Positions 4,537 through 51,632 of a DNA stretch of 52,246 nucleotides are shown piece after piece (the first letter of the stretch is position 1; the number at the start of each line of letters is the position of its first letter). The stretch is taken from contig JAFTLZ010000102.1 in NCBI GenBank assembly GCA_017452665.1, forward strand, positions 1-52,246. The letters are read 5' to 3'. A model generated the notes under the pieces. That model did no database searches. It was not told the origin of the DNA and saw only the letters and a program-made list of their open reading frames with translations. A program made the position numbers and the translations under genes. The stretch is from Clostridia bacterium. GTDB taxonomy: Bacteria; Bacillota; Clostridia; Oscillospirales; CAG-272.

Positions 4537-4551
4537 TGAGATTAACGCTGT

Positions 4552-8985: not shown

Positions 8986-9017
8986 AATAACGAACTCAAG
9001 AAAACGGAGGATCGGAT

Positions 9018-14299: not shown

Positions 14300-14328
14300 T
14301 TGCAAAAAGGAAAAAAAGGTGCTATAAT
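14300..14328 (+). promoter_or_regulatory. Sigma-A promoter of the large lipoprotein gene
   Basis: TTGCAA (14300-14305), 17-nt spacer, TGCTATAAT (TATAAT at 14323-14328). Confidence 0.5.
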
Positions 14329-14386
14329 GATCCTGACAACTTATTCCCGCGTAACAAAATCACTTTGTGACGAAGAAAGGAAGAAT

Positions 14387-35120: not shown

Positions 35121-36197
35121 ATGAGTAAAATGAAAGTCGGCGTCATCGGCGCTACGGGAATGGTAGGTCAGCGTTTTTTGACGCTCCTTGCCGACCATCC
35201 GTATTTTGAGGTTTCGGTTTTGGCAGCATCCGCGCGCTCCGCAGGAAAAACCTATGAGGAGGCAGTTGGCGACCGCTGGAAGATGACCACCCCCATGTCC
35301 GAACAGTTCAAGAGCATGGTCGTCGTGGACGCGGCAGATATCGCAAAGGTCGGGGAGCAATGCTCCTTCGTGTTCTGCGCCGTCGATATGAAAAAGGAAG
35401 AGATCCGTGCCCTGGAGGAGGCGTATGCCAAGGCGGAGATCCCCGTGGTCTCCAATAACTCCGCAAACCGCTGGACGCCGGACGTTCCGATGGTCATCCC
35501 GGAGATCAACGACGCACACCTTGAGGTCATTGCCGCACAGCGCAAGAGATTGGGAACCAAGCGGGGTTTTATCGCTGTTAAGCCCAACTGTTCCATCCAG
35601 TCCTATGTTCCCGCGCTGACGCCTCTGCTCAAATACGGCATCAAGGAGGTCGTCGCCACCACCTACCAGGCAATTTCGGGAGCCGGCAAAACCTTCCGTG
35701 AGTGGCCCGAAATGGTCGATAACGTGATTCCTTACATCGGCGGCGAGGAAGAGAAGAGCGAGCAGGAGCCCCTGCGCGTTTGGGGACACGTAGAGAACGG
35801 CGAGATCGTCAAGGCAGCGGCACCGCTCATCACCACGCAGTGCATCCGCGTGCCCGTAACCGACGGTCACACTGCAGCTGTGTTTGTGCGCTTTGAAAAC
35901 AAGCCCACTAAGGAAGAAATTCTGGACGCATGGAAGAACTTTTCCGGCAAGCCGCAGGCGCTGGAGCTGCCGCACGCACCCAAGCAGTTCATCACCTATT
36001 TTGAAGAGGACAACCGCCCGCAGGTCAAGCTCGACCGTGATATCTACGGCGGCATGGGCGTTACGGTAGGTCGCCTGCGCGAGGACACCCTGTTTGACTA
36101 TAAGTTTGTGGGACTTTCCCACAACACACTCCGCGGAGCGGCAGGAGGCGCAGTTCTGATCGCAGAATTGCTCTACCGCGAGGGCTACTTCAACTAA
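35121..36197 (+). CDS. asd: Aspartate-semialdehyde dehydrogenase
   Basis: GATGMVGQRF NAD(P) motif, active-site NCSIQ, 358 aa. Confidence 0.95.
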   Translation: MSKMKVGVIGATGMVGQRFLTLLADHPYFEVSVLAASARSAGKTYEEAVGDRWKMTTPMSEQFKSMVVVDAADIAKVGEQCSFVFCAVDMKKEEIRALEEAYAKAEIPVVSNNSANRWTPDVPMVIPEINDAHLEVIAAQRKRLGTKRGFIAVKPNCSIQSYVPALTPLLKYGIKEVVATTYQAISGAGKTFREWPEMVDNVIPYIGGEEEKSEQEPLRVWGHVENGEIVKAAAPLITTQCIRVPVTDGHTAAVFVRFENKPTKEEILDAWKNFSGKPQALELPHAPKQFITYFEEDNRPQVKLDRDIYGGMGVTVGRLREDTLFDYKFVGLSHNTLRGAAGGAVLIAELLYREGYFN

Positions 36198-36216
36198 CAA
36201 AATCCAAAATAGCCCC

Positions 36217-36255
36217 CCCGCCAACCACTTTCGCAGTTGGCGGGTTTTCTATTTT
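36217..36255 (+). terminator. asd terminator = island hairpin copy 1
   Basis: 9-bp GC-rich stem (36217-36225 / 36236-36244) followed by TTTTCTATTTT. Confidence 0.75.
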
Positions 36256-36294
36256 GCACAAAAACAGTGCGCTGATTTTGTTGTGTTTTGCATA

Positions 36295-36323
36295 TTGACA
36301 CCATTTTACCTGTATGGTATAAT
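36295..36323 (+). promoter_or_regulatory. Cassette 1 promoter
   Basis: TTGACA (36295-36300), 17-nt spacer, TGG-TATAAT (36318-36323). Confidence 0.75.
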
Positions 36324-36434
36324 AAAATTGCAGATGGCGCGCTGGTTATCCTCTCAATTTTTACTACTACTATTATTATTGGTGAAGTTGTTGTGATATC
36401 CGGTAGCGTTATTAAGTTGTTTGAATAGGAAGGA

Positions 36435-36626
36435 ATGGCTATGAGAAAAATATATTTATTTAATTGTATTGTTTTAGCTTTCAATATTATTCTTTCTATC
36501 ATATCAATTCTTCTTTGTAAGGCGAACGTGTTTCATTATATTGCTTTGGTTGCGTTAGTTATTGCGTTGATTTGTGTTATAGTCCAAATAAAGAAAGATA
36601 AAAAAAGCCAGCAAGGAGAATCCTAA
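36435..36626 (+). CDS. Small membrane protein (63 aa)
   Basis: Two hydrophobic helices and a basic tail. AGGAAGG RBS. Its stop overlaps the next start (TAATG). Confidence 0.65.
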   Translation: MAMRKIYLFNCIVLAFNIILSIISILLCKANVFHYIALVALVIALICVIVQIKKDKKSQQGES

Positions 36627-37249
36627 TGAAATATGTTGTATATATCATTTTGTTTTTCTGTGCCGGCTTTTTGTTTTTGCCTCGAACCGGAACCACAGAG
36701 ATCCGCAATCAACCTCTTCTAATACTGATTCTTTCACTCATTCTGATCTTGATTTTGATTCGTTTCTTCAAATACGTTGTCTTAATGGCAAAAACACAAA
36801 AATTACTCAAAAAGCATAGGACTAAGCTGATAAAAATCAAGTTTTTTCCATGGACTTCGCGCTTTCACGGTCATTACAGTATTACTTTTCAACACGAAAA
36901 GCAAACGGTTCAGCTCGTTCTTCTATCCCGAAAAAAGAAATACCAGCGGTACCATTTTGAACGTATAGATCGGTTGGAATTTTACCGGGCAAACCGAGTT
37001 GTTTTCAAGAGTACCCAAAAATTGGGAGGTATCATCTCCAACCTTGTAGAAATCAATCAGGTTGGCAAACAAAGGATAAAATGGGAAGATTCTGCAGAAC
37101 TCCGCATCGTTCTTTTTGATAAGCTACCGGATCTGATAACGGATTCCGTAAAAAAAGAACCCCTTGGCGTAGGCGATCGGATATGCGCATCCGATAGTTA
37201 TGTATTGGATTGGAGCTCGTTATCCAAACATATCCATGCAGATAAATAA
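36626..37249 (+). CDS. Hypothetical protein, N-terminal TM hairpin plus basic soluble domain
   Basis: 207 aa, AAGGAG RBS, translationally coupled to the preceding ORF. Confidence 0.75.
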   Translation: MKYVVYIILFFCAGFLFLPRTGTTEIRNQPLLILILSLILILILIRFFKYVVLMAKTQKLLKKHRTKLIKIKFFPWTSRFHGHYSITFQHEKQTVQLVLLSRKKKYQRYHFERIDRLEFYRANRVVFKSTQKLGGIISNLVEINQVGKQRIKWEDSAELRIVLFDKLPDLITDSVKKEPLGVGDRICASDSYVLDWSSLSKHIHADK

Positions 37250-37294
37250 CAATTTCTACTCAATAAAATCTAAATTTGAAAGGCGGTGTTTTAT

Positions 37295-37831
37295 ATGAAG
37301 AACGCAATGGTACTAATTCTGTTTTTGTCGTTGTGCTTGTTTGGCTCATGTGCTACAGGAGGATATAATTTGAGCAGTGAAGTATCTTCGCCTGATAAAA
37401 AACTAACGGATTTAGCATCTAAAACATATGATGATTCAACGCTGTTGGATATTGTAAATTTTGATGGCTCAAGCGATGAGTTGAACGTTTTATATCCGAT
37501 TGAATGTGTAAGAAAACTTGATGATATTTATCGAGTATCATATCTTGGCGAAGATAGTGTTGCGGTTCTTTTATTTGACAATTCAGGCAATAAATTGTCC
37601 GGAACAATCTACGACAATCAAAAGTCAAAATCAGACTTTGCTGAATTGGAAAAAGGACAGTCTCTACAAAAAGTAAGAGAGCTTGATCCAAACGGAGCAT
37701 ATATATTCCTTTACACCGGAAGTGTTGATACTCCCAAAATCTCTTCGCACTACACGAATGACGGTTATTTAATTACCATCGAATACGACGCTTCAAATAT
37801 AATCACAAGCATATGTGAAGAACTGATTTGA
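37295..37831 (+). CDS. Hypothetical lipoprotein
   Basis: Signal peptide MKNAMVLILFLSLCLFGSC with lipobox, 178 aa. Confidence 0.75.
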   Translation: MKNAMVLILFLSLCLFGSCATGGYNLSSEVSSPDKKLTDLASKTYDDSTLLDIVNFDGSSDELNVLYPIECVRKLDDIYRVSYLGEDSVAVLLFDNSGNKLSGTIYDNQKSKSDFAELEKGQSLQKVRELDPNGAYIFLYTGSVDTPKISSHYTNDGYLITIEYDASNIITSICEELI

Positions 37832-37853
37832 TTTATGAATCGGCATCAAATGT

Positions 37854-37885
37854 CTCCCGCCAACCACTTCCGTGGTTGGCGGGAG
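37854..37885. repeat. Island hairpin copy (14-bp stem, loop TTCC)
   Basis: CTCCCGCCAACCAC (37854-37867) pairs with GTGGTTGGCGGGAG (37872-37885). No T-run follows. Confidence 0.85.
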
Positions 37886-37925
37886 CAGACTGTAGACAAA
37901 ACAACCGGCTTTCGTCAGTTTGAAG

Positions 37926-38088
37926 AAAAGTTTTGGTCGAGCTTTTTCAAAAGCTCGCGCAGTGGAGGGCGCGGAGCCATCCTCGCCCTTCGCAGAGGGC
38001 GAAATAGCCTCTTTATGGCGCTTTTCTTTTTGCCAAGCTTTTTCTTTTGCGCCTTCTTGGTCAAAAGAAAAAGCGGCACTAACAAATT
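37926..38088 (+). ncRNA. Structured multi-hairpin repeat element, copy A (function unknown; ncRNA or MITE/REP-like)
   Basis: Hairpins at 37938-37957, 37984-38001 and 38037-38074 (12-bp stem). A homologous inverted copy lies at 47948-48097, with compensatory changes in two stems. Confidence 0.5.
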
Positions 38089-38122
38089 TGTGCAATATTA
38101 CAAATTGAATACCTTTGGTCTA

Positions 38123-38168
38123 CAACCAGCTCCCGCCAACCACAGAAGTGGTTGGCGGGAGCTGGTTG
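38123..38168. repeat. Island hairpin copy (perfect 21-bp stem, loop AGAA)
   Basis: CAACCAGCTCCCGCCAACCAC (38123-38143) pairs with GTGGTTGGCGGGAGCTGGTTG (38148-38168). Confidence 0.9.
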
Positions 38169-38226
38169 CATCGTATAAAGTAAAAAACGAATCGGTAAGA
38201 CCATAAATGAAGTCGTCACGGTGCTC

Positions 38227-38255
38227 TTGACAGTTTTTTTGAATTATGGTATAAT
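38227..38255 (+). promoter_or_regulatory. Cassette 2 promoter
   Basis: TTGACA (38227-38232), 17-nt spacer, TGG-TATAAT (38250-38255). Confidence 0.7.
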
Positions 38256-38313
38256 ACAGATGTATATGTGTCAATACCTACAGATCAGACAAACGGTTCG
38301 GGAGGTGATTTCT

Positions 38314-38892
38314 ATGCGAAAAACTTATGCAAATTTGCTTCGTGTTAAGGTTGCCAAAGGATTGCTTCGCGGCCTCGTTTGGTTTGCGGTAATTCAAATT
38401 GTAATTCTTGCTGTATATGCTTTGGAATCTCATTCAAATGCTCCCATCAGCATAACCGATTTAAAAAGTGCCACTATTACAGTTGATCAAATCGGAAAAG
38501 ATGTCCGTTTTGTTGGTGGATCTAGAATTTATGTTGTTTCCGATTCTGTAAAGTATACTTTTTCTAAGTCAGAGACACTCGACAACGGGCAATATACCAA
38601 AGATGAGTTGCAAAAAGCGATTTCCGTTGGTGATGAGTTGTCAATACGATATAAGGAAGAGGACAGCTTTTTTACGGGCAGTGTGAATTATATTTACGAT
38701 GCTACGATGGGTGATAAACAACTGCGTTCTATTGAAACACATAATCAAGAGTTGATCAATATGCATAGTTTGGCAACTGTTTGTTTTGTGGTTGTAGAAA
38801 TTATCTTTTCTCTAACCCTTATTGTTTGTGCTTGCCTTTATATCTCTTTTAACTGGAAGGGAATGAAGCTTTTTCAAAAGCGCAAGCACTAA
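38314..38892 (+). CDS. Hypothetical membrane protein (N- and C-terminal TM helices)
   Basis: 192 aa. GGGAGGTG RBS 7 nt before the ATG at 38314. Confidence 0.75.
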   Translation: MRKTYANLLRVKVAKGLLRGLVWFAVIQIVILAVYALESHSNAPISITDLKSATITVDQIGKDVRFVGGSRIYVVSDSVKYTFSKSETLDNGQYTKDELQKAISVGDELSIRYKEEDSFFTGSVNYIYDATMGDKQLRSIETHNQELINMHSLATVCFVVVEIIFSLTLIVCACLYISFNWKGMKLFQKRKH

Positions 38893-38898
38893 CCTCTT

Positions 38899-39017
38899 CC
38901 GCCAACCACTTTTGCAGTTGGCGGGTTTTCTGTTTTGCACAAAAACGGCGCGCTGATTTTGTTGTATTTTGCATATTGACGTCATTTTACATGTATGGTA
39001 TAATAAAATTACAAATG
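38899..39017 (+). repeat. Hairpin + promoter module, copy 2
   Basis: CCGCCAAC...GTTGGCGG, TTTTCTGTTTTGCACAAAAA..., TTGACG-N17-TGGTATAAT (38976-39004). Confidence 0.9.
38976..39004 (+). promoter_or_regulatory. Cassette 3 promoter
   Basis: TTGACG, 17-nt spacer, TGG-TATAAT. Confidence 0.7.
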
Positions 39018-39086
39018 ACACCATCGGTATTTGGTGCACAGATACGGTTACAATTTTAAAACAGATAGCCAAAGGAGGGATTAAGT

Positions 39087-39734
39087 ATGAAACGTATCAA
39101 ACCGATTTTATTCTGTATAGGAATTGTTCTGTTGGTGTGCTGTATTTTATGGATAGCTCTTCGCGCATATGGATGTTCTTTAACAACATATATTACTGAT
39201 CTTGAAAAGTATGCTGGAGAAGAATATGCTTTTTGTATAGTATTTCCGAGAAAAATACCGGAAACTGCAGTTGAAAAAAACTTTTCTTATCATCAATATA
39301 TCGACGAAAGAGATATCTATCTGGAATTGGTTTTTCAAAATGTTGCAGATATGGAGCAATATCTTGCGGATTTAAAAGCGAACGGCGATGGTATTGCCTC
39401 AATAACTTTGCAAAATCCTTATGACACAGACTATACTGATTTGCTTTTTGCAGAAGGAGGTACATTGACGCAAAATGGTTCCGTTTTTTATGAGTACGAG
39501 ATTGAGCAGATAGAAAACTATTCTTTAAAGATTAGCGGAAGTTATTCTGCCATTAGTTATTCTTATGAAACTTTAACGGTGATTTCTGCTCATTTTGATG
39601 GTCAGAGATTTGTAAAGGAGTTTTCTTCGGAAAGAGTTCCTGCATATTTGAAAAGATTTTCTGTCGATCTGAATACACCTATTGAATATCGGGTTGATTT
39701 CCCCACGGAAAATTCTGATTTGACGACAGAATGA
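39087..39734 (+). CDS. Hypothetical membrane-anchored protein
   Basis: 215 aa with an N-terminal TM anchor. AAAGGAGG RBS. Confidence 0.8.
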   Translation: MKRIKPILFCIGIVLLVCCILWIALRAYGCSLTTYITDLEKYAGEEYAFCIVFPRKIPETAVEKNFSYHQYIDERDIYLELVFQNVADMEQYLADLKANGDGIASITLQNPYDTDYTDLLFAEGGTLTQNGSVFYEYEIEQIENYSLKISGSYSAISYSYETLTVISAHFDGQRFVKEFSSERVPAYLKRFSVDLNTPIEYRVDFPTENSDLTTE

Positions 39735-39798
39735 ATAAGCGAATCGGTTAATATGATCGCAGTTGAGCAGGGTACAGCATATATATGGAGGCAATAAA

Positions 39799-40221
39799 AT
39801 GAAATACAAAAAGAGTATTCTGGTTCTCTATCTCATTTCCGCTTTGAAGCTGATTATGACATTTATCTATTTTTTCGGTTTCACATCTGATTTTTATTAT
39901 TTAACAATTATCTCTATTCCCATGTGTATAGCGAATATGTTTAACGAAAAAATAGCATTGCTTTGTGTCGTAATTTTAGCGGTTACTTTGTTGATATGGC
40001 TTGTTGCGGTTGTACTTTCGATATTTGGAATTAAATTTCAAAGGGCTCGAATCGGTTCTGTATTTATGTTTGCTTTGGCTACAGTAATTGATTTTGGATC
40101 TGTATTTTTATCTGATAATTGGGTTCTAAAAATCGTTTGTAGCATAATATCAGCATTTGTACTGCTGATATCAATCAAAGCACTTTGCGATATTAACAAA
40201 AATTGTAGATATCCAAAATAA
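39799..40221 (+). CDS. Hypothetical polytopic membrane protein
   Basis: 140 aa with about 4 TM helices. GGAGG RBS 7 nt before the ATG at 39799. Confidence 0.75.
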   Translation: MKYKKSILVLYLISALKLIMTFIYFFGFTSDFYYLTIISIPMCIANMFNEKIALLCVVILAVTLLIWLVAVVLSIFGIKFQRARIGSVFMFALATVIDFGSVFLSDNWVLKIVCSIISAFVLLISIKALCDINKNCRYPK

Positions 40222-40256
40222 TCCTTTATAATAGTCAGATTTTAGAGGCTTTATCC

Positions 40257-40370
40257 CCCGCCAACCGCGAAAACGGTTGGCGGGCTTTCTGTTTTGCACA
40301 AAAGAGCCATATATATTTTGTCTTATTTTATATATTGACACTCTTTCTGTTGTATGATATAATAAAACAT
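40257..40370 (+). repeat. Hairpin + promoter module, copy 3 (diverged)
   Basis: CCCGCCAACCG-N6-CGGTTGGCGGG, CTTTCTGTTTTGCACAAAA..., TTGACA-N17-TGATATAAT (40335-40363). Confidence 0.85.
40335..40363 (+). promoter_or_regulatory. Cassette 4 promoter
   Basis: TTGACA (40335-40340), 17-nt spacer, TGA-TATAAT (40358-40363). Confidence 0.7.
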
Positions 40371-40422
40371 ATAGGAGCCCCGTTCTTGCCATTCGATTTT
40401 ATGATAAGCGGCAAAAGGAGTG

Positions 40423-40827
40423 ATGACTTTGTTTGAATTTAACCGATCTCAAATCGAAGGTTTAAAGCGTTATATTTATCATAGCGATATTCACGATTCG
40501 AAAATTGATGCTTGGAATTATGATAGAGAGAAAAGAATTCTTAATATCAAAACGGTTAATCCGATTTTTGGTACTCAAATGAACCTAACTTTTAAGGAAG
40601 TTATCATTTTTCTCTCCATTAGCGGCAATGAAATCGGAGCCCGCGAAACAATCCTCAGTTTAACAGTTGAAGAAGATTATTCGTATTTCCAAAATTGCAC
40701 ACAAGTATGCGGCGAATGTTTCGGTGATTCTTTGTATCTTCTTTTTCAAATGTTTTCCGGAGACGAATTGCATATTGTTTCTAAAAGCGTAGTTATCTTT
40801 ACGACACAACTTATTCCACGCGCGTGA
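40423..40827 (+). CDS. Hypothetical small soluble protein
   Basis: About 134 aa. AAAGGAG RBS. The start is ambiguous (GTG 40420, ATG 40423 or TTG 40429). Confidence 0.7.
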   Translation: MTLFEFNRSQIEGLKRYIYHSDIHDSKIDAWNYDREKRILNIKTVNPIFGTQMNLTFKEVIIFLSISGNEIGARETILSLTVEEDYSYFQNCTQVCGECFGDSLYLLFQMFSGDELHIVSKSVVIFTTQLIPRA

Positions 40828-41507
40828 TGGAAGAAAAACACCAAAATTGTTCCGGTACGTTTTTCAACGAAGCGATTTGGGATATCAATGACTATTTATC
40901 AAAAAGCACTGTCATGTTGGGGGATAATATCAAAATGCTGAATCAATTTTTTACACGAATCGAGCGCAAAATGCTCCTCTCAAGGCTAAAAGCATTGCTG
41001 GCATGGCTGTTTCTCATCGGTGCTTATGTTTTCTTTTTTCTGTACGATTGGCGAAGGGGAATTTTTTTCCTGTTCCTTCTTCCAATGCTTGTGGCAATTT
41101 ATAGGACTGATAATTGGTATTTTCCGGCGGAAGATTATTTTCGGAAGTATGCATTCAAGCATTCCAAAGAAGAACGGTGGAATTTATCCGAAAAATGTTC
41201 ATTGAAAGGGAGATATCTATATATCGGGCAAGCGATTTTTTTGGAGGATTTTGTTTTGTTAGAGGAATTCGGCGTTGTTTTGTATTATAGCGAAATCCGC
41301 GAAATCACCTACAAAACCATGAAAACCAGATTAAACGATACCCGATATCGGTTGATCTTCCGTTTAAAAAAAGCACCTCGAAAATACGCTTGTGATATCT
41401 ATAACAGTGAAAAACTTTTTGTAGGTCGTGATTGTAAATATCGACAAGCATGCGAATTGTTGAGGCAAAAAAATAAAAATCAAACTCCTAATGAAAGGCA
41501 AATATGA
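40827..41507 (+). CDS. Hypothetical protein, TM hairpin plus soluble domain
   Basis: 226 aa. The start overlaps the upstream stop (GTGATG). Confidence 0.75.
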   Translation: MEEKHQNCSGTFFNEAIWDINDYLSKSTVMLGDNIKMLNQFFTRIERKMLLSRLKALLAWLFLIGAYVFFFLYDWRRGIFFLFLLPMLVAIYRTDNWYFPAEDYFRKYAFKHSKEERWNLSEKCSLKGRYLYIGQAIFLEDFVLLEEFGVVLYYSEIREITYKTMKTRLNDTRYRLIFRLKKAPRKYACDIYNSEKLFVGRDCKYRQACELLRQKNKNQTPNERQI

Positions 41508-41878
41508 TGGATTTATTAGTTTGTTTGAACGAGCATGTCATTACAACTGTTGGCCGGTCGGATGAGGATAAATGTGTGATTATAGAAGCCATCGTTGACA
41601 ATCCGGAAGAGCTTGTAGAGCAGGTCATAAAAAATGATTGTTATATTTCTCAAATTATTTGGTGGGATAGAGCGTTGCGCTCAAAAGGATCATCTATAGG
41701 TATGGGAGGCCCTCTTGATCCGCGAGATCCTGACAATTATTATTTTGCAGAATTGTATATTTGTGATACATTTGGCCCGGAAACAACGGCTGATGAATAT
41801 GTTGAATATCTGAATAGGATAAAAAAGAAATATCCTATGTGTGATTTGTATCCGGATTTTAATATTTATAGAAAATAA
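41504..41878 (+). CDS. Hypothetical small acidic soluble protein
   Basis: 124 aa. The start overlaps the upstream stop (ATGATG). Confidence 0.75.
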   Translation: MMDLLVCLNEHVITTVGRSDEDKCVIIEAIVDNPEELVEQVIKNDCYISQIIWWDRALRSKGSSIGMGGPLDPRDPDNYYFAELYICDTFGPETTADEYVEYLNRIKKKYPMCDLYPDFNIYRK

Positions 41879-41934
41879 TCATGCGATTTGCCCAAGGCAA
41901 AAAATCCTCCCCAAAATGCTGAAAGGAGCGAAAG

Positions 41935-42402
41935 ATGAGCAACATGATCCATGGAACCGTTTATTACACGACAAGGCCCCCGCTTGGTGATTTTGATAGT
42001 GATTGGACACGATACTGTCTGGATAACGAATTTGCAATTCATTTTTTAAGCTTACATCATAATATATCAACGGGTAAGGGGACTATTGTATTCGAGTTGG
42101 CCGATTCCTTTGTGGCACACTGTTGTGAGAATTTTATGGATATTGTCCTCTATACGGTTGATGGACACCCCATATTAGATCCAATCCATAAAGATTTGGG
42201 CAAATTAAAGGGCTTGGTTCAAAAAATATTCGATTTCAAATCTGTGGAAATGGTTGAATTGAGGTTTTCGTTTGGCGAAGTCATAGAGGAAGACTATGAA
42301 ATTTGTAAGACGAATCTTGATGGAATGACGAACGTTATTTTATCAAAATACTTGGAGGAAGCCACACAAGTTCCTACCATAAAAGTAATGATCGAAAAAT
42401 AA
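41935..42402 (+). CDS. Hypothetical soluble protein
   Basis: 155 aa, GAAAGGAG RBS. Confidence 0.75.
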   Translation: MSNMIHGTVYYTTRPPLGDFDSDWTRYCLDNEFAIHFLSLHHNISTGKGTIVFELADSFVAHCCENFMDIVLYTVDGHPILDPIHKDLGKLKGLVQKIFDFKSVEMVELRFSFGEVIEEDYEICKTNLDGMTNVILSKYLEEATQVPTIKVMIEK

Positions 42403-42426
42403 AGAACCGCTTGGAGGTGTGACCAC

Positions 42427-42906
42427 TTGGATATCTGGCTCATAGAAAAATGGCAAGATTATTATAAAGATCATCCTTGCCGAAGCGGCTTGCGAGTATA
42501 TTATGATAAAAATGTGGATCCTGAAGTAAAGCGCGCCATTAAGGAGTGCGTTGCATGGCTTCGTCGCGAATATGTTTTTCCTAAAAGAGTACGAATGTAT
42601 GTAAAATCCAATCGACGCATCAAAGCAAAAAACGGCGATATGGTGTGCGGTACTTTTTTCAGACCCACTGATAGAGATGTGGAACCGTATATTCGAATTG
42701 CCACAGGAGACTATTTGGAACTTTTCGAACAAAGGGGAAAGGACAATGCTTTAGCAGCTATCTTGCAAGCAATGATGCATGAACTCTCCCATTATTTTCA
42801 GTGGTTGAACGATTTGGATTTAACCTTCATCGGTGAAGAACGTCAGGCAACAAACTATTCGCGTCGGTTGATGAGTCTCTATGCAGAAACCAGAGATCAT
42901 CCGTAA
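42427..42906 (+). CDS. Hypothetical protein with HExxH motif
   Basis: 159 aa. TTG start 7 nt after GGAGGTG. MMHELSHYFQW is a possible zincin-like metal site. Confidence 0.7.
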   Translation: MDIWLIEKWQDYYKDHPCRSGLRVYYDKNVDPEVKRAIKECVAWLRREYVFPKRVRMYVKSNRRIKAKNGDMVCGTFFRPTDRDVEPYIRIATGDYLELFEQRGKDNALAAILQAMMHELSHYFQWLNDLDLTFIGEERQATNYSRRLMSLYAETRDHP

Positions 42907-42968
42907 ATTTTTGCTTTCACTATTGCAGGTATATCCATTTGTTTTCATTTTTTGAGGAGGAGTCATTC

Positions 42969-43208
42969 ATGGATAAAATTAAATTTTACAAAATACTAAA
43001 AGAAAACGGCATAGATACGAACAAAGTTTGTTTTGATGATGCTTTTGAAGATGATGTTTTTTGTGTTTACTCCTACCATGGTTTTTGGGATGTTTTTTAT
43101 CGAGAACGCGGAAAAACTTATAATCTAAAAACTTTTTCAAGTGAGTCTGCGGCACTACTCGATTTATTAAAACGATTGTTACCGACCATTCCCCCAAACT
43201 CCCCCTAA
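42969..43208 (+). CDS. Hypothetical small protein (79 aa)
   Basis: GAGGAGGAG RBS 6 nt before the ATG at 42969. Confidence 0.7.
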   Translation: MDKIKFYKILKENGIDTNKVCFDDAFEDDVFCVYSYHGFWDVFYRERGKTYNLKTFSSESAALLDLLKRLLPTIPPNSP

Positions 43209-43244
43209 TAAAACTGTCCGTACTTTAATGATTGGAGAATCGCA

Positions 43245-43538
43245 ATGTATATAAATGTTCTATATGAAGGTGATTATTGTGATTGTGATATTATATTTGT
43301 TCCTGATTCTATTGGAGATAAGATTGAACAATATGCGCAACAATTTTGTGATTGGCTAAATACTCCTTACGTTTCGAATGATTATTATGTGACCATAAAT
43401 GGCAAGGAATACCTGAGTTTAGAAACCGACGGATTTGTTCGTTGGCTCAATCATTATATTTGCAAAGATCAATGCTTGGCGCATATAGTAAAACAGCACA
43501 CAAATTTAGTTCCTTCGTACAAGGTGATAGAATTTTAA
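43245..43538 (+). CDS. Hypothetical small protein (97 aa)
   Basis: GGAG RBS. Cys- and Tyr-rich soluble protein. Confidence 0.7.
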   Translation: MYINVLYEGDYCDCDIIFVPDSIGDKIEQYAQQFCDWLNTPYVSNDYYVTINGKEYLSLETDGFVRWLNHYICKDQCLAHIVKQHTNLVPSYKVIEF

Positions 43539-43581
43539 GGGTTGTTTTCTTTCTATCCTAATCCGAAAAGGAGTAACCATT

Positions 43582-44310
43582 ATGAAAACTATTCAAAGAT
43601 GTGTTTGTGTATTGATAATTCTATCCGCGATGTTTCTTTCGTCTTCTTGCAAAAATTATTATTCGGGCGATGAGTATCATATGCTTGGTTCATACATTCC
43701 GGGATTTCCAACAACAGATGTGAGAGATTCAATACATGAAGTCCTTGAAACTGACGAATACGGAAGAGTGTTATTTTCTTTCTCCTTCAGTTATAACTGT
43801 CTGTACGGTAAAGAAATGTTGGCATATGCTGTTTTGCAGGATTTAGATGGTGATTTCATTTATTTTTATGAAGATGTGTTTTATACCGTTTCTAAAACTC
43901 CCGATCTTGAATTGTTGAAACAAATAAATGATTGGGGTGAAGAATTAAATCAATCACAGCTTGCAAAACGTCCGATTCGCGGTTATTTTCACTATAATAT
44001 CAAAAAAACATTGCTTGAATTTGATCGCCGATCCGATCGGAAAAGAATTGTTCAAGAAATAGAGCAAGCGCTTCCTTCCAAAGGCGTTCACTTAACTGAC
44101 ATATGCCAGATCTGTGATTATGATTTATCCGAGTTGCAACTGGAGCTATGCGGGATTGAAGAGGAAGATGGGGAAATCGTATATTATTTCATTCTTATAA
44201 ATTCAAGCGGCGTTGTAGATTTTATGAGAATCGAAGATATTTATGATTATCAAGAAGATCTGATTGCCTTCAAGACGAAAAACGGTTGGAATTATCCTAC
44301 CGGAAACTGA
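43582..44310 (+). CDS. Hypothetical lipoprotein
   Basis: Signal peptide with lipobox (MFLSSSC), 242 aa, AAAGGAG RBS. Confidence 0.8.
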   Translation: MKTIQRCVCVLIILSAMFLSSSCKNYYSGDEYHMLGSYIPGFPTTDVRDSIHEVLETDEYGRVLFSFSFSYNCLYGKEMLAYAVLQDLDGDFIYFYEDVFYTVSKTPDLELLKQINDWGEELNQSQLAKRPIRGYFHYNIKKTLLEFDRRSDRKRIVQEIEQALPSKGVHLTDICQICDYDLSELQLELCGIEEEDGEIVYYFILINSSGVVDFMRIEDIYDYQEDLIAFKTKNGWNYPTGN

Positions 44311-44342
44311 AAAATTGTATAGGAGGTTATGCAATAAACAGT

Positions 44343-44759
44343 ATGAGTTTTGTTGAATATATTTTGGTATATACTCTCTGGCTTCTCCTGATGGTGTTTA
44401 TTACACGTGGCATCATTTTCTATGTAATTAGCTATCAACTGAGTAGAAAAGCATATGTCAAACGAAAGCGAAAACAGTCTTTTCTTCAATGGTTGACGTA
44501 TGCTCTTTTTAAAGAACAAATTCCTAAGTTTTTGATTTTTTGGTATTTTGGTCATTTTGCGTTTTATATTGTTGAAATCTTGCTTCTTAGTATTTTAACA
44601 TTTTTTAAAATGCCATATGATGCTGCAAAAATCTTGTTGGGAATCAATTTCTATGTATACGGTGGCGCCCCGTGTTTGATACTGGGTTTTATTCTTTTTG
44701 ATTTTAAAGATCGGGGAAAGGTTCATGTGGAAAGGCTGATTAAAAAGAAGAAAAAATGA
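44343..44759 (+). CDS. Hypothetical polytopic membrane protein
   Basis: 138 aa with about 4 TM helices and a KKKKK tail. The start is uncertain (TTG 44286 or ATG 44343). Confidence 0.7.
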   Translation: MSFVEYILVYTLWLLLMVFITRGIIFYVISYQLSRKAYVKRKRKQSFLQWLTYALFKEQIPKFLIFWYFGHFAFYIVEILLLSILTFFKMPYDAAKILLGINFYVYGGAPCLILGFILFDFKDRGKVHVERLIKKKKK

Positions 44760-44775
44760 TTATAAATCAATTTTC

Positions 44776-44812
44776 CCCGCCAACTGCGAAAGTGGTTGGC
44801 GGGTTTCTAATT
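44776..44812 (+). terminator. Terminal island hairpin (loop inverted relative to copy 1)
   Basis: CCCGCCAAC (44776-44784), TGCGAAAGTG, GTTGGCGGG (44795-44803), followed by TTTCTAATTTT. The loop is the exact reverse complement of the copy 1 loop CACTTTCGCA. Confidence 0.75.
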
Positions 44813-44842
44813 TTCAGTCAAAATTTTGCACAAACCGCATTT

Positions 44843-45661
44843 TTATGCGTCGGCGCTGTTCCGTGCTGTCAAATGACGGTACTCCGACGGAGTCATACCG
44901 GTAAATTCACGAAACGTCTCCCGAAAATAAGACGCTGAATGAAATCCGCAGCGGTCGGCAATCCCATCCATCGGCAGATCTGTGTCCCGCAATAACGCAG
45001 CCGCATTTTCCACCCGCAGCTCGTTGCGGTAGTGAATCGGCGTCGTGTCAAGCTCACGCTTAAAGATGTGATACAAACGGGATTCGCTGATACAGCAATG
45101 CGCCGCCAGCGCGGAGATGTCAAAATCCGTGTGGCAGTTTTGCTCAATGTAATCCAGCGCCGCGCGCAAAGAAGCATGCTGACGCAAGGGCGGCTCCTGT
45201 TGCAAATAAGGAAGCACATCCGCATAAAACTCGTAGTACAACCCAATGGCGCGAATTTTGTTCGTCCGCTCTCCGGTGGCAAACAGCTCGTAAATCTGCT
45301 CAAATCGTTTCTGCGTTTCCGGCGTGGACATTTGCGCAAGATGCGCCATGGCGTAGTTTGGCGTGTCGGCAGGATCGGGACGCTTGGAAACGATCTCCAA
45401 CGCGTAAAACTCAATTTCAGGCGCGCCGTGCCATACCGAGTGGTAACGAATCCCTTCGGGAATATAAAACAGACTTCCCGTACCCATTGCAATTCGTTTG
45501 CCCGCCGTGTGCAGCGTTACCTCCCCCTTGATCACAAATCCAAAGCTGGAGTAAACTCTGCCCGCGCCCGCATCGTAGTAGTGCGCGTTCGTCGCGTATG
45601 AATGTGTCGCACGAAGCTCGCTCATACAAAGTTTTTTGCTATATCCCACACTGTTTCCCAT
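44843..45661 (-). CDS. AraC family transcriptional regulator (cupin sensor + HTH)
   Basis: N-terminal cupin-like region. C-terminal AraC HTH signature (GFHSASYFRETFREFTGMTPSEYR). Confidence 0.85.
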   Translation of the reverse strand: MGNSVGYSKKLCMSELRATHSYATNAHYYDAGAGRVYSSFGFVIKGEVTLHTAGKRIAMGTGSLFYIPEGIRYHSVWHGAPEIEFYALEIVSKRPDPADTPNYAMAHLAQMSTPETQKRFEQIYELFATGERTNKIRAIGLYYEFYADVLPYLQQEPPLRQHASLRAALDYIEQNCHTDFDISALAAHCCISESRLYHIFKRELDTTPIHYRNELRVENAAALLRDTDLPMDGIADRCGFHSASYFRETFREFTGMTPSEYRHLTARNSADA

Positions 45662-45781: not shown

Positions 45782-46765
45782 ATGAAAGCCATTTTGGTAC
45801 AACAAGATAAATCCCTTACCTGGAGTGATGTCCCCGATCCCACCGTGGGCGCGGAGGACGTGCTGGTTGAAATTCACTGTGCCGCATTGAACCGTGCCGA
45901 CCTGATGCAGCGAGACGGCGATTATCCGCCTCCCGCAGGCTGTCCCGAATGGATGGGTCTGGAGATCGCAGGCGTGATCGTGGAAATGGGCGCCGTTGCC
46001 GCCGAAAAATCCAACTTCAAGCTCGGAGACAAGGTCTGCGCCCTGCTTGGCGGCGGAGGCTATGCCGAGTACGTCACGGTCAAATACGATATGCTGATGC
46101 CGGTTCCCAAGGGACGCTCATTGGTCGAGGCATCCGCCATGCCGGAGGCATACGCCACAGCTTACCTTAATCTTTTTATCGAGGGAAAAGCCAAGCCCGG
46201 CGACACACTCCTGATGCACGCAGGGGCAAGCGGCCTGGCGTCGGTGGTCATCCCCATGGCAAAGGCGTTCGGTCTGCGGGTGATTACCACAGTCCTATCG
46301 GACGAGATCGCCGAAAAAATCAAGCCCCTTGGCGCCGATCTCATCGTCAATACAAGCAAGGAGAACATTGCCCGGGTGCTCAAAGCCCAGCTGGAGGCAG
46401 GTACACCCGTGGACGTCGCCATCGATTGCCTTGGCGGCAGTTTTATGGGCGGATGCTTGCCGTATCTTGCCCACGGTGCCCGCTGGATCATGATCGCCGC
46501 TCTTGCAGGACAGATCACCGAAATTGACCTAAAGAACATCTATGTGCGCAACGTACGCATCATCGGCAGTACTTTGCGCTCCCGTACCCCCGCGTTCAAG
46601 GCGGAGCTACTCGCAAAGCTGGTTTCCGACGTGTGGCCAAAGGTGGAGGCAGGGATGATCAAGCCCTCCATTTATAAGGTCCTGCCCATTCAGCAGGCAG
46701 AGGAGGCACACGCCATTCTTCAACGCGGCGAAAACGTGGGCAAGGTCGTTCTGACCGTCAAATAA
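45782..46765 (+). CDS. NAD(P)H:quinone oxidoreductase (medium-chain dehydrogenase/reductase family)
   Basis: 327 aa with MDR fold features (GGGGYAEY, HAGASGLAS nucleotide-binding region). Confidence 0.8.
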   Translation: MKAILVQQDKSLTWSDVPDPTVGAEDVLVEIHCAALNRADLMQRDGDYPPPAGCPEWMGLEIAGVIVEMGAVAAEKSNFKLGDKVCALLGGGGYAEYVTVKYDMLMPVPKGRSLVEASAMPEAYATAYLNLFIEGKAKPGDTLLMHAGASGLASVVIPMAKAFGLRVITTVLSDEIAEKIKPLGADLIVNTSKENIARVLKAQLEAGTPVDVAIDCLGGSFMGGCLPYLAHGARWIMIAALAGQITEIDLKNIYVRNVRIIGSTLRSRTPAFKAELLAKLVSDVWPKVEAGMIKPSIYKVLPIQQAEEAHAILQRGENVGKVVLTVK

Positions 46766-48176: not shown

Positions 48177-48572
48177 TTAAATCAACCCGTAGCGATCCGT
48201 AATGTGCGTCGCCGTAGCGGGCAGCTCCACCTGAATGGAAGCCAGCGCGTCGGAGTAGAGCGAAAAATATTTGTCGCTCATGCGCTCGTTTTCATCTATC
48301 ACCAGCATCGCGGCAAGATAATAGACCGCTGCCGGCGCAAAGATCCCGCAAAGCGGAAATGCTTCACCCAGGTCAATCGCAGCGCCTTCAAACGCTTCCA
48401 CAGCATCCAATCCGTGTGCCAATCTGTATCTCGCATCCAGCGGCGCACATTGCGTCAAACAGGAGGCAAGCAGATAGGGCGCACGCTCGGTATAGTCTTC
48501 CAAATTCTGCGGCAGTGATGGATCCTCACAAACCAAACGCACCGCCGCATCCAAAAGCTCCTGACAGGTCAT
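48177..48572 (-). CDS. Phage protein of unknown function (position suggests head completion/connector)
   Basis: 131 aa, GGAGG RBS, immediately downstream of the capsid gene. Confidence 0.6.
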   Translation of the reverse strand: MTCQELLDAAVRLVCEDPSLPQNLEDYTERAPYLLASCLTQCAPLDARYRLAHGLDAVEAFEGAAIDLGEAFPLCGIFAPAAVYYLAAMLVIDENERMSDKYFSLYSDALASIQVELPATATHITDRYGLI

Positions 48573-48586
48573 TTGTTACCTCCGCA

Positions 48587-49426
48587 TCAAACCGCGTCCG
48601 CGATGTTCAGATCCAAAAGTACCATTTCGGAGGGGTAAACCACCTTCGCACCGTAAAGATGCAAGCCCTTTACCGCATCTGCAAAGCGCAGCTCGGGACG
48701 ATATGCGTCAATCTCGGAGAGCTGCTCCGCAAATGCGATGGCGCGCTTGGTGCGTGCCAGGCACTTGTGCTTGTAGCCGGTGTCGCTTTCGGCTTTGACG
48801 ATGTTGTTGGAAACGTAAATTTTGCAACCGCCGATCGAGCCGATGCAACCGTTTTCCAGCGCGTCACCGTTGTCGCTTGCCAAATTGACCTTCGCCTTCA
48901 GAATCATGCCGGCAATGTCGGGAGAAACCTCGATCACAATGTCCTGCGGATCGGAAACGTTGTTGGTAAAGAGTTTGGTACGCGCATCGATCAGCAGATC
49001 AATAATGTTGTCCACCGTCGTATCCTCGGCAGAAATTTTCACTCCTGCATCGTTGTAAAGATTGTAGATGTAACGGTCTGCGTCGTTTGCCAACGCATTT
49101 GCGGCGTTGCGCATCGCAGCCTCCATCAGCTTCGGGGAAGCCTGCGCACGGTCGATATCGTCGATCTGGAAGTTAAAGTACTTCGCCTGATCAATTACCA
49201 AATCGCGCACGTTGTCGGAGAGGCTGGAGGGAGAACTCATATTGGAATTTTTTGTGTACTCCGAAACGGTCACGGCATTGATGCCGCAAATGCGTACAGT
49301 GTTGCCTTTCTCGCGGATCTCGCCCTCAAAATCGCGGTTGCAGTTGGATACCGCAATGTACTGCTTGTTCAGCTCCTGATACAGATTTTCGCTCCATACA
49401 GTGGGAATAAAGTTTGTAATAGCCAT
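48587..49426 (-). CDS. Phage major capsid protein (P22-coat-like family)
   Basis: The N-terminus MAITNFIPTVWSENLYQEL...NRDFEGEI..KGNTVRI matches my memory of P22 coat-like capsid proteins. It follows the scaffold gene. Confidence 0.75.
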   Translation of the reverse strand: MAITNFIPTVWSENLYQELNKQYIAVSNCNRDFEGEIREKGNTVRICGINAVTVSEYTKNSNMSSPSSLSDNVRDLVIDQAKYFNFQIDDIDRAQASPKLMEAAMRNAANALANDADRYIYNLYNDAGVKISAEDTTVDNIIDLLIDARTKLFTNNVSDPQDIVIEVSPDIAGMILKAKVNLASDNGDALENGCIGSIGGCKIYVSNNIVKAESDTGYKHKCLARTKRAIAFAEQLSEIDAYRPELRFADAVKGLHLYGAKVVYPSEMVLLDLNIADAV

Positions 49427-49483
49427 AATTTTTATCCTTTCTTTTTTAAAAAATATAAAATAATTCTTGTTCTTATTCTAAAA

Positions 49484-50074
49484 TCAGCGCCATTTTTGCA
49501 TAGATCGCATGATTTTTGGCAGATTTGCCCGTACTTCGGTCGCGGACATTGCGCGTACCTCGTCAGGCGAAAATTCTTCGGCTTCCTGTGCTTTCAGTGC
49601 ACCTGCCGAGCGGTTTCGGTTTTCTTCGTTCCGTTGCATTGCCATCTCCTGTGCACAAACCCTGCGCCGTTCCGCCAATGCATAAGCGGCAGCAAGAGAG
49701 GTGCCGCGGGTCTGTACCTCTTCCCAAATGGATGCGGGAAGTGTCGCCACGGGAATCTCGGGATACAGCTTGTAAAACTCCTCGTATTCGCTTTCAATGC
49801 GGCTGAGCACCGCACTTTGCCCCGCAAGCTTTTCCTGCAGGCGCGCTATTTCGGTTCGCAGGTCGGCAAGCTCGTCCTCGTCAGCTTTTGAAACAGCGGG
49901 CTCAGAATCAGGATTAGGATCTGCACCGGAATTTTCAAAAATTGCATCGCCGACAGTCTCTTCCATTGCAGCATCTGCCGATCCTGCTCCTGTCTCTGCG
50001 CTTTGAGAATCCGCACAGCTCCGCGTTGCATCCTCCGAATCCGAATTTTCGATAACAGTTTGATTTTCATTCAT
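49484..50074 (-). CDS. Phage scaffolding protein
   Basis: 196 aa with an acidic, low-complexity N-terminus and a helical coiled-coil region. It lies between the portal and capsid genes. AAAGGAG RBS. Confidence 0.7.
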   Translation of the reverse strand: MNENQTVIENSDSEDATRSCADSQSAETGAGSADAAMEETVGDAIFENSGADPNPDSEPAVSKADEDELADLRTEIARLQEKLAGQSAVLSRIESEYEEFYKLYPEIPVATLPASIWEEVQTRGTSLAAAYALAERRRVCAQEMAMQRNEENRNRSAGALKAQEAEEFSPDEVRAMSATEVRANLPKIMRSMQKWR

Positions 50075-51533
50075 TTTCTGACGCTCCTTTCACAAAAATT
50101 TTTTGGATCATTGCATCCCGGTCGATCAATACCCCGTCGGGTAGCAGCTCCAGATATTGGCGGACATCCAAATGCCCCTTGTCCAACAGCTTGTCCAGCA
50201 CCGTTACGGTTGCCGACGGCGTGTAGCTGCTGAGGCCGTTTACCTGTGCAGTTGCCCGCAAAAGCTCCTTTTTCATCAGCGCAAAATCGGTCTCCTGCGC
50301 GCTCTGCGTGCCGTCTGCATCCAGCGTCACAAGTAGACGCTCGGCAGGGTAGTAGGTGCAAATCATATCCGCCCAAATATCGGCAAGCTCACCGATACAG
50401 CGTTGAAAATTCGCACGCACGTGTGCCAGAGCCAGCTGTGAGGCTTCCTGCAAAGCAAGAATGGCACTTGTGTTGTTCGCTTCCGCGTCGCCAAGAGCTG
50501 CGTCGGTCGCGTTCATCATGCTCTTGGTGTTTTCAATGATGTGCGTGATCAGGTCCAGGTATCCGTCCTGCATCTTGCCCACACCCACCACCGATACCGC
50601 ATCCGCCACGTTTCCGCCGCCCATCGCAGCAATCGCCTCGCCCACCTCATTCGACCAATCCGGGATACGGGATTTGTCATAAACGACCTTGGAGAACGCC
50701 GTGTCGCTCATGTGCTTCATAGCCAATGCATACGCAGAATTGATATACTTTTGGTTTGCAATCATATCGCTGATGGGCGCGCTGCCGTGAAAGCTGTTTT
50801 TGCAATCGTGCCAATGAAAGTAGGCAACAGGGTAGTGGTGCAAGCCCGTGTGTACGCGGCGGATCAGGCAGTAGCGCGTGGACTTTTCAAATACCACCTC
50901 GCCGTTTTCACGGAAAAAGCGGATCAGATAGGTCGTTTTCTCCGCGTTGTTCAGTTCGCATTTTGCAAGATCTCCCGCTTGTAGCTCGGCTTCGCCATCT
51001 CCCGTAATGCGCAAGACGTCGCGCTCGCTTACCCCCGCCTCCAAGGCCTCATGGCGCAGAGATGATACGGTCGCGCGTCCGGAGAGCAGAACGTATTCCT
51101 GTGATTGCAGATCCGAGCAGTTGACGTCCGAAACAAACAGATTGGTACTGTCAATGCGATCGGTGCGGATGTCACCCGTGTAGAGCTGACCATCCGTGTG
51201 GTCGGGATCCCACCAGCAGTAAAATACACCGTCTCCCGAGATTGCCGCATCTAACAGAGCACCGTAGGAGAGTACCTCCATCCGACCCTGTTGCCAACGC
51301 CACAGCGCATTCTTGTTCAAAACCTCGATCCCCTGTAAAATCCGTTCCCGCGCGTCAGGCTCGCGGATAAAGGGGAGCGCGTCGTCCGAGTAGCGGACCG
51401 TAAGATTTTCCGACATCACGCCGGCTACCAGATAATCGGTAATTCTTCGTACCAGGTTAAAAACGGGGCGGGGCAGATCGGTACAAATCCCGTGCCACTG
51501 ATCGCCGCGGTAAAATCTCTCGTTGCGCCGCAC
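50067..51533 (-). CDS. Phage portal protein (true start probably further upstream, near 51620)
   Basis: Portal-typical N-terminal NERFYRGDQW motif, about 490 aa, gene order. The frame stays open upstream to an AAAGGAGG at 51622-51629 (see finding). Confidence 0.8.
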   Translation of the reverse strand: MRRNERFYRGDQWHGICTDLPRPVFNLVRRITDYLVAGVMSENLTVRYSDDALPFIREPDARERILQGIEVLNKNALWRWQQGRMEVLSYGALLDAAISGDGVFYCWWDPDHTDGQLYTGDIRTDRIDSTNLFVSDVNCSDLQSQEYVLLSGRATVSSLRHEALEAGVSERDVLRITGDGEAELQAGDLAKCELNNAEKTTYLIRFFRENGEVVFEKSTRYCLIRRVHTGLHHYPVAYFHWHDCKNSFHGSAPISDMIANQKYINSAYALAMKHMSDTAFSKVVYDKSRIPDWSNEVGEAIAAMGGGNVADAVSVVGVGKMQDGYLDLITHIIENTKSMMNATDAALGDAEANNTSAILALQEASQLALAHVRANFQRCIGELADIWADMICTYYPAERLLVTLDADGTQSAQETDFALMKKELLRATAQVNGLSSYTPSATVTVLDKLLDKGHLDVRQYLELLPDGVLIDRDAMIQKIFVKGASENE

Positions 51534-51632
51534 CGTCTCGTAAAGTCCGATTCGACGCTTGTACTCTTTTCCCGCCTCGTATTCCTGCCATGCTTGAGTA
51601 GTTGGTTGAGAAATAACAATTCCTCCTTTCGT

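Follow-up and report, generated by a model that had tools for sequence, protein, structure and literature searches.

A probable heterogeneous polyimmunity locus in a rumen Clostridia genome, divided into four units by a repeated, predicted terminator-plus-promoter module

What could an AT-rich block of 15 small genes, set between asd and the gene for an AraC-family regulator, do for the bacterium that carries it? The question is raised by a 52,246-bp contig (here called the window, at its full length) of an NCBI metagenome-assembled genome (MAG) labelled 'Clostridia bacterium' (locus tags IJW92_059xx), whose host is an uncultured rumen Clostridia. The genes, g01 to g15, lie on the plus strand in an island of 8.6 kb (interval 36.2-44.8 kb; NCBI proteins MBQ7335988 to MBQ7336000), which a first-pass annotation had taken for an immunity or defence array made of hairpin-bounded, promoter-headed units. 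We consider it probable that the island is a horizontally acquired immunity-gene array devoid of toxins, that is, a heterogeneous polyimmunity locus or orphan-immunity island. Loci of this kind have already been described; the unusual part is the split into four units by a repeated module that would join a terminator to a promoter.

The island is set off from its surroundings by a foreign base composition: its guanine-plus-cytosine (GC) content is 0.34-0.40 over 36-45 kb, as against 0.50-0.56 in the flanks on both sides, and the drop coincides exactly with the gene block, so that the earlier description of an AT-rich run of 15 same-strand open reading frames (ORFs) between asd and the AraC-family gene holds. 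The products are unrelated to one another by all-against-all BLASTP, and no toxin gene accompanies them. Searches of the window by tblastn, with Rhs proteins and with the Rhs C-terminal (Rhs-CT) modules of related loci as queries, found neither an Rhs gene nor an Rhs-CT remnant, and Pfam recognised no toxin domain. Likewise, no recombinase is encoded among the called genes of the 52-kb window or, in the 11.6-25.7 kb section, among ORF translations read by eye, in agreement with the first-pass statement that the island holds neither a recombinase nor a toxin gene. Rfam and tRNA scans of the window gave no matches.

The argument for immunity starts from gene neighbourhoods. In a metagenome scan, relatives of g03 were encoded in 75 loci, many of them from the same gut species and hence not independent of one another; in 48 of the 75, one Rhs C-terminal domain, whole or truncated, precedes the relative and ends within 150 nt of it. 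The toxin fragments differ in extent and identity across these loci, and in one of them (L169) the g03-paired domain is the C-terminus of a full-length Rhs protein of 2086 amino acids (aa). Judged by this coupling, the g03 family is the predicted cognate immunity partner of one Rhs C-terminal toxin domain. A Pfam scan of the paired domain finds no known toxin family, a g03 family profile retrieves nothing significant from the PDB sequences, and a single-sequence AlphaFold model of g03 is unusable, with a predicted local distance difference test (pLDDT) score of 36.6. Relatives of g03 and g11 co-occur in four loci (L105, L106, L108 and L111), whose arrays also hold DUF1963 and DUF5071 proteins. 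In a common human-gut group (L117-L148), just the last ~100-130 residues of the Rhs-CT remain before an intact g03 relative; there the toxin is decayed and the immunity gene retained.

Relatives of g11, a family of 509 clusters (the best 120 of the 509 being 53-80% identical), also follow Rhs genes. In Bacillus sp. AFS055030 (L094) a gap of 16 nt separates one of them from the preceding Rhs gene, whose 2296-aa product has DUF6531 and YD-shell domains. Another, on a metagenome contig (L097), overlaps a 204-aa orphan Rhs-CT gene that itself comes after a 2241-aa Rhs gene; the two toxins have a short, very basic C-terminal motif in common, and a Pfam scan of the g11-paired Rhs C-terminal domains finds no known toxin family. 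These C-termini (L094 ~9700-9985, L097 7826-8440) carry an odd-looking toxin module, whose putative immunity partner has its HExxH intact: a Lys/Arg-rich motif of ~55 aa, …PGQKKQGRENKTKARK…HTP…. Elsewhere a g11 relative stands among the genes that trail a 2109-aa Rhs gene (L090, L091), in a small-gene array with Imm33 and DUF1963 (L098, L099), or in an array whose gene content varies between samples (L082-L089), as a comparison of L082 with L085 and L088 illustrates. In L082, 50-nt direct repeats (3710-3759 and 3988-4037; 96% identical), each spanning a ribosome-binding site and first codons, flank a variable 77-aa gene on either side; this gene is absent from the otherwise identical L085 array, which suggests short-repeat recombination as the route of its gain or loss. 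A resolvase-type serine recombinase gene adjoins g11 relatives on a Bacillus sp. chromosome contig (L094 10899-11504) and on a B. mycoides plasmid (L095 6670-7278).

The one enzyme-like motif that the first-pass annotation had pointed out among the products, an HExxH in g11, proves to be a family trait: at least 90% of 39 aligned sequences keep H118, E119 and H122. The AlphaFold model built from the 39-sequence alignment has a mean pLDDT of 93.9, and its best PDB matches, to the metal-dependent hydrolase YbeY, its homologue TM1509 and archaemetzincin, are weak (E 0.013-0.4, template-modelling scores ~0.45); a g11 family profile finds nothing significant among PDB sequences. Together with the conserved HExxH, the model matches make g11 look like a minimal zincin-type metalloprotein. 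The g11 family may act as an enzyme on the short, very basic Rhs toxin tail with which it is paired, and not neutralise that tail by binding it.

Two further genes are drawn into the same circle. A weak relative of g15 (28% identity, E ~1e-9) is encoded directly behind a 306-aa orphan Rhs-CT gene (L092), and a second one occurs in an array (L167). The link of g14 to immunity consists in fusion to g11-like domains only (P0046, P0031). The g11 family also forms g11-g11 tandem proteins (P0017, P0018, P0020, P0033, P0039 and others) and fusions to HEAT repeats (P0045, P0059).

Across all products, the first-pass annotation had seen no recognisable family signature and had called the proteins orphans, and the two statements fared differently. 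The former is borne out: no Pfam, NCBIfam, PHROGs or PADLOC model reached threshold for any of the 15 proteins, PADLOC-DB gave nothing below E = 0.003 and no system-level match, and the only family match at all was a weak one between g11 and DUF6639 (E = 1.6e-4), a family of which no mention was found in the literature searched. The latter does not hold. A HMMER scan of 1.84 billion representative proteins, with eight island proteins joined end to end as the query, returned 1,419 proteins at E ≤ 0.001, and relatives were assigned to single genes from the best 150 of these. Among those 150 are at least 73 relatives of g03, at least 64 of g11, at least six matches to g07 (one a near-identical g07 copy), at least three relatives of g09 and at least two of g10; alignments of the g07, g09 and g10 families are good, with 41-53% identity and conserved motifs. 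With g14 and g15, at least seven of the 15 proteins thus have relatives, although clusters at 90% identity around the island proteins contain one or two members only. On plasmids, tblastn of 14 of the 15 proteins (g01 excluded) matched g11 alone, in isolated or decayed copies from Bacillus mycoides and Priestia megaterium with uninformative contexts.

How the genes are arranged for expression can be read from the noncoding sequence. Matches to TTGACA-17-TATAAT at 11-12 of 12 positions with an extended -10 TG begin at 36295, 38227, 38976 and 40335, four on the plus strand where 0.24 would be expected from a shuffled island, so that the four perfect or near-perfect sigma-A promoters claimed earlier are indeed present; they appear to be of host type, because equally good promoters precede host genes elsewhere in the window. 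A hairpin of the form CCGCCAAC-N10-GTTGGCGG occurs in six copies (H1 to H6), all of them within the island, the other 44 kb being free of it, against an expectation of 0.03. It opens a module of ~130 nt in which hairpin, tail (TTTTCTNTTTTGCACAAAA), a ~30-nt spacer and a promoter follow one another. Between modules, homology sets in with the hairpin's first base (~30% identity over the 20 nt before it) and fades ~15 nt past the -10 element; the most diverged copy, copy 3, retains 18 of 18 positions in the hairpin arms and 17 of 20 in the tail, with 15 of 30 in the next 30 nt. The first 50 nt of the module recur at the far end of the island, where H6 and its tail make a fourth hairpin-plus-tail copy. 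Over 28 nt H6 matches the reverse complement of H1 exactly; its flanks keep the direct orientation, so that the inversion is confined to the middle of the palindrome. H1 lies between an A-tract and a T-tract, looks bidirectional and is probably a bidirectional intrinsic terminator, the asd terminator of the convergent asd/AraC-family pair. H2 and H3, which lie in the two ends of an element resembling a miniature inverted-repeat transposable element (MITE), lack a U-tract, and unit 1 is therefore without a canonical intrinsic terminator; the contigs of other assemblies break inside this element. Overall, the predicted transcription layout comprises four promoters and three or four terminators, serving units of one to nine genes each; unit 4 contains nine, with gaps of ~60 nt or less, or overlaps. 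The earlier picture of units headed by a promoter and each ending in the same hairpin survives in part: six hairpins, four promoters and three predicted hairpin/U-tract terminators are there, while the shared module heads three units only (at 36217, 38898 and 40257) and two of the hairpins, H2 and H3, belong to the ends of the MITE-like element.

Taken together, the relatives of g03, g11 and g15 behind Rhs toxins and the lack of any toxin in the window fit a polyimmunity locus. The island lies in the terminator region between the convergent asd and AraC-family genes. We posit that its products would bind or otherwise neutralise the C-terminal toxin domains of Rhs/YD-repeat proteins, and probably of other polymorphic toxins, delivered by competing gut Firmicutes, thereby protecting a cell that makes no such toxins itself. 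The lipoproteins and membrane proteins could guard the envelope and the small soluble proteins the cytosol, a division for which the first-pass sorting of the products into lipoproteins, membrane and soluble proteins is about right. Four strong extended -10 sigma-A promoters would drive four transcription units, three of them ending in hairpin-plus-U-tract terminators. For the origin of the ~130-nt module we prefer a duplication of the native terminator of the asd and AraC-family genes, joined to a promoter and copied as units were added; the module would then insulate and drive the units and, as a side effect, offer ~130 nt of homologous sequence through which the array could gain, lose or exchange units.

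Several observations weigh against this proposal. Direct neighbourhood evidence for immunity covers three of the 15 genes (g03, g11 and g15, over two units), so the immunity array of the first-pass annotation gains support at these three, and the other twelve would be immunity genes by association; informative relatives turned up for none of g01, g02, g04, g05, g06, g08, g12 and g13. No product matches at threshold any of the known Imm families held in Pfam and NCBIfam, the conserved HExxH of g11 hints at catalysis, which would be unusual in an immunity protein, unit 1 is without a proper terminator, and a recombinase is missing from the window. Polyimmunity loci, moreover, usually vary between strains, and no gene-content variation was seen in the five other assemblies available (ENA and Logan records, two with names carrying SAMN15829953 and SAMN15829954). 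There the island is colinear and 99.5-100% identical. The few differences include a patch in g09, where one non-synonymous change stands beside five synonymous ones, an observation in favour of the proposal. When the exact sequences of the Asd protein, of the AraC-family protein and of the alcohol dehydrogenase encoded beyond the latter were used to look for an empty site or a variant island, only the same arrangement was retrieved. An identical syntenic block in related strains had been named in advance as a finding that would speak against the cassette idea. Such a block is what these assemblies contain, yet at this level of identity they sample one population and make a weak test of cassette variation. 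The features on which these arguments draw are collected in the table.

Table. Position and character of the genes, repeats and predicted signals of the island and of its neighbours; positions are those of the window.
Feature	Position	Strand	Description
asd	35121-36197		upstream neighbour of island
H1 hairpin	36217..36244	+	CCCGCCAAC-N10-GTTGGCGGG; 20 nt past asd stop; flanked by CAAAATAG and CTATTTTG
module copy 1	36217..36349	+	hairpin, TTTTCTATTTTGCACAAAA tail, promoter (-35 at 36295, -10 ends 36323, TG); heads unit 1
g01	36441..36626	+	61 aa; two transmembrane segments
g02	36626..37249	+	207 aa; two N-terminal transmembrane segments and soluble domain; MBQ7335988.1
g03	37295..37831	+	178 aa; predicted lipoprotein
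MITE-like element	37854..38161		308 bp; 48-nt inverted repeats, 90% complementary; 212-nt interior
H2	37856-37883		in one end of MITE-like element
H3	38132-38159		in other end of MITE-like element
unit 2 promoter	38227..38255	+	12/12 match, TG; outside repeated module
g04	38314..38892	+	192 aa; transmembrane segments at both termini
module copy 2	38898..39030	+	88% identical to copy 1; H4, tail, promoter 38976-39004; ends unit 2, heads unit 3
g05	39087..39734	+	215 aa; N-terminal membrane anchor
g06	39799..40221	+	140 aa; four transmembrane segments
module copy 3	40257..40389	+	64% identical to copy 1; H5, tail, promoter 40335-40363; ends unit 3, heads unit 4
g07	40423..40827	+	about 132-134 aa; soluble; relatives 47-53% identical
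g08	40827..41507	+	226 aa; membrane protein; start overlaps g07 stop codon
g09	41504..41878	+	124 aa; soluble; conserved GGxxDPRDPxNYYFAE motif
g10	41935..42402	+	155 aa; soluble; relatives 41-44% identical
g11	42427..42906	+	159 aa; conserved HExxH; zincin-like predicted fold
g12	42969..43208	+	79 aa; soluble
g13	43245..43538	+	97 aa; soluble
g14	43582..44310	+	242 aa; predicted lipoprotein
g15	44343..44759	+	138 aa; four transmembrane segments
H6 and tail	44776..44837	+	tail TTTCTAATTTT[13-nt insert]GCACAAA; abuts AraC-family stop codon; predicted unit 4 terminator
AraC-family gene	44843-45661	-	downstream neighbour; convergent with asd
zinc-dependent alcohol dehydrogenase gene	45782-46765		beyond AraC-family gene

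The proposal has to be weighed against three others, the best placed of which is about how the repeats arose and can coexist with an immunity function. The hairpins and modules could be debris of a small non-autonomous family, MITE-like or of the repetitive extragenic palindromic (REP) type, lodged in the intergenic gaps of an ordinary acquired island, and the cassette appearance would then be a by-product. The 308-bp element at 37854-38161 speaks for such a family, with its 48-nt terminal inverted repeats built from the same hairpin, and so does a 22-nt piece of its interior (37940-37961) that recurs, 86% identical, just upstream of H4 as the last codons of g04 (38867-38888); to judge from this repeat, the 3' end of g04 may have been built from the element. 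Similarly, an unrelated immunity array (L105, L106, L108) carries three internally deleted IS630-like copies with promoters of their own that head different genes, from which it appears that promoter-bearing mobile debris accumulates in such arrays. These copies, in a human-gut immunity array (L105 5455-5837, 7580-7962 and 9854-10155; L108 1807-2283), have 25-nt inverted ends, transposase remnants such as PYSPDMNPIEMLWSKVK and a TTGACA...TACAAT promoter, and each precedes a different gene. The 130-nt modules of the island, however, show neither a second inverted end nor a visible target duplication, no transposase is present, the other 44 kb of the window hold no copies, and no related element came to light in any collection searched: the hairpin gave 73 single matches in 185,579 species genomes, scattered over unrelated phyla and none with the tail or promoter, which we read as chance terminators, and two single matches in IMG/VR, likewise taken as chance, and the module gave none in metagenome contigs. 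The first-pass annotation had allowed for ordinary genome-wide REP elements; on this the analysis covered the 52-kb contig and these collections, and one true MITE-like copy is present. All told, we regard debris as an unlikely source of the modules and continue to favour a duplicated terminator-plus-promoter.

Less likely again is a gene-capture array, in which the hairpin and tail (CCCGCCAAC-N10-GTTGGCGGG-TTTCT-TTTTGCACAAAA) would form a site-specific recombination site comparable to attC or to Xer/dif-type sites, and promoter-bearing immunity cassettes would enter and leave singly at the asd terminator through the action of a recombinase whose gene lies elsewhere in the genome. Tyrosine recombinases use core sites in which inverted arms of 9-11 bp surround a short spacer. 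The hairpin has this shape, it stands at every unit boundary and at both ends of the island, with H1 and H6 as perfect inverted copies over 28 nt, and the far-end hairpin and tail lie against the AraC-family stop codon like a duplicated target. That homology between modules begins exactly at the first base of the hairpin, and that arms and tail are the parts best kept in the most diverged copy, would also be expected of such a site, and the rAID-1 arrays combine repetitive intergenic sequences with an XerD-family recombinase (10.1101/471110). Against it, the 52-kb window encodes no recombinase, the other assemblies show neither a cassette-level variant nor an empty site, and the site is absent, beyond chance singletons, from the species genomes, the metagenome collection and IMG/VR. 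The central 10 nt vary from copy to copy, so that a tyrosine recombinase would be unable to exchange strands there, an intrinsic terminator fully explains a hairpin followed by a U-tract, and self-promoted cassettes are unlike those of integrons. A separate candidate, that the hairpins are dif/Xer-like sites as such, was rejected, as they bear no resemblance to the dif consensus and their spacers differ between copies; it is kept only inside the capture scheme. If that scheme were true, the island would do in a Gram-positive bacterium what integrons and rAID-1 do elsewhere, using cassettes that are self-expressed and insulated by terminators.

That the island is instead a collection of mixed accessory genes, such as prophage morons or anti-phage defence genes, linked to a prophage 3.5 kb downstream, is very improbable: capsid, portal and terminase genes do lie near it (about 48.3-52.2 kb) and most products have no assigned function, but there are no PHROG or PADLOC matches, IMG/VR contains no relatives of g07, g09, g10 or g11 and phage-free contexts dominate, three genes of host composition separate island and prophage, and the ties of the g03 and g11 families to Rhs toxin domains are close.

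The prophage genes themselves (window 48200-52246, minus strand) include Phage_capsid_4 and a P22-type portal, and the terminase gene is found past the window end, in L180; the GC content of the region is host-like, and the genes between it and the island encode the AraC-family protein, the zinc-dependent alcohol dehydrogenase and an epimerase-family protein. Elsewhere in the window, a second stretch of lower GC content (0.41-0.47, positions 1-9000) contains genes for an ABC ATPase, a Crp-family regulator and a ZIP transporter, as well as three ORFs of 213, 472 and 329 aa without a Pfam match. A 1276-aa predicted secreted protein is encoded at 14300-18130 on the plus strand; it has an acidic, Thr/Pro-rich N-terminal region, repeated modules of ~90 aa and Cys-rich CxxCxxxCP motifs, and a Pfam scan found no match in it.

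How, then, does the island compare with systems already known? Among the closest are the arrays of orphan Rhs-CT and immunity genes found downstream of rhs genes, and the WapA/WapI pair of Bacillus subtilis. The g03, g11 and g15 families occur in arrays of this sort (L090-L092, L097, L108, L111, L163 and L169), whereas the island carries immunity halves only, in a window with neither an rhs gene nor an Rhs-CT fragment.

The analogy to integrons, which the first-pass annotation had drawn, is limited to the presence of units of unrelated genes bounded by a repeated imperfect palindrome. It fails on the integrase, on the sites and on the cassettes: the island has no intI, no attI and no attC-type sites with R and L boxes, its repeats being 28-nt GC-rich hairpins followed by U-tracts, and its units are self-promoted and hold one to nine genes, unlike integron cassettes, which are single-gene and promoterless and rely on a Pc promoter beside the array. 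MITE-type carriers of promoters or terminators, such as the Correia elements of Neisseria and the 'putative mobile promoters', offer another parallel, in that a short repeated noncoding module would supply a terminator and a promoter to unrelated genes, and one true MITE-like copy is present in the island; the island modules differ from them in having no terminal inverted repeats and in being seen in this island only.

Closer counterparts exist among immunity loci, and it is here that the first-pass verdict, that the architecture could not be assigned to a described system, has to be revised. The rAID-1 (recombinase-associated acquired interbacterial defence) clusters of Bacteroidales are orphan immunity clusters headed by a XerD-family tyrosine recombinase gene; their GC content is skewed and their intergenic sequences are repetitive (Ross et al. 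2019; 10.1101/471110). The island resembles them as an orphan immunity array with skewed GC content and repetitive intergenic sequences (three modules and a fourth hairpin with tail), and its predicted role, protection from the toxins of other strains and species, is the same. It differs in that a XerD-family recombinase gene is absent, in that its host is a Clostridia MAG and its partners are Rhs/YD-repeat proteins of Firmicutes, where rAID-1 counters effectors of the type VI secretion system in Bacteroidales, and in that its repeats stand at four or five unit boundaries and are terminator-plus-promoter-like, whereas those of rAID-1 lie between every ORF.

The best fit is with polyimmunity loci, tandem arrays of unrelated immunity genes in the same orientation that are never interrupted by toxin genes, occur in Firmicutes among other phyla and have counterparts elsewhere in fused 'polyimmunity proteins' (Zhang et al. 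2012, Biol Direct 7:18; PMC3482391). Where that survey asked for four or more such genes, the island has 15 in tandem on the plus strand, with unrelated small products and no toxin gene among them; members of three of its families lie behind Rhs toxins elsewhere (g03 in 48 of 75 loci, g11 in L094 and L097, and weakly g15 in L092), and the g11-g11, g11-HEAT and g11-g14 fusions match the polyimmunity proteins. It departs from the published loci, each presumed to be one tight operon, in consisting of four self-promoted and mostly terminated units, short gaps being found within unit 4 and four promoters in the island as a whole; it also has no adjacent recombinase, its products are unmatched by the published Imm families in Pfam and NCBIfam, and the five assemblies, from one population, show no strain variation. 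The neighbourhoods define two uncharacterised toxin-immunity pairs, the g03 lipoprotein with an Rhs C-terminal domain of ~200 aa and the g11 HExxH family with a short basic Rhs tail, both of which could be tested by co-expression, and the terminator-promoter module, known from one locus in one population, offers a lead on how arrays in Firmicutes may be built and kept expressed. Polyimmunity and acquired interbacterial defence have been worked out experimentally mainly in Bacteroidales, and the island would add to them a clear example from the Clostridia.

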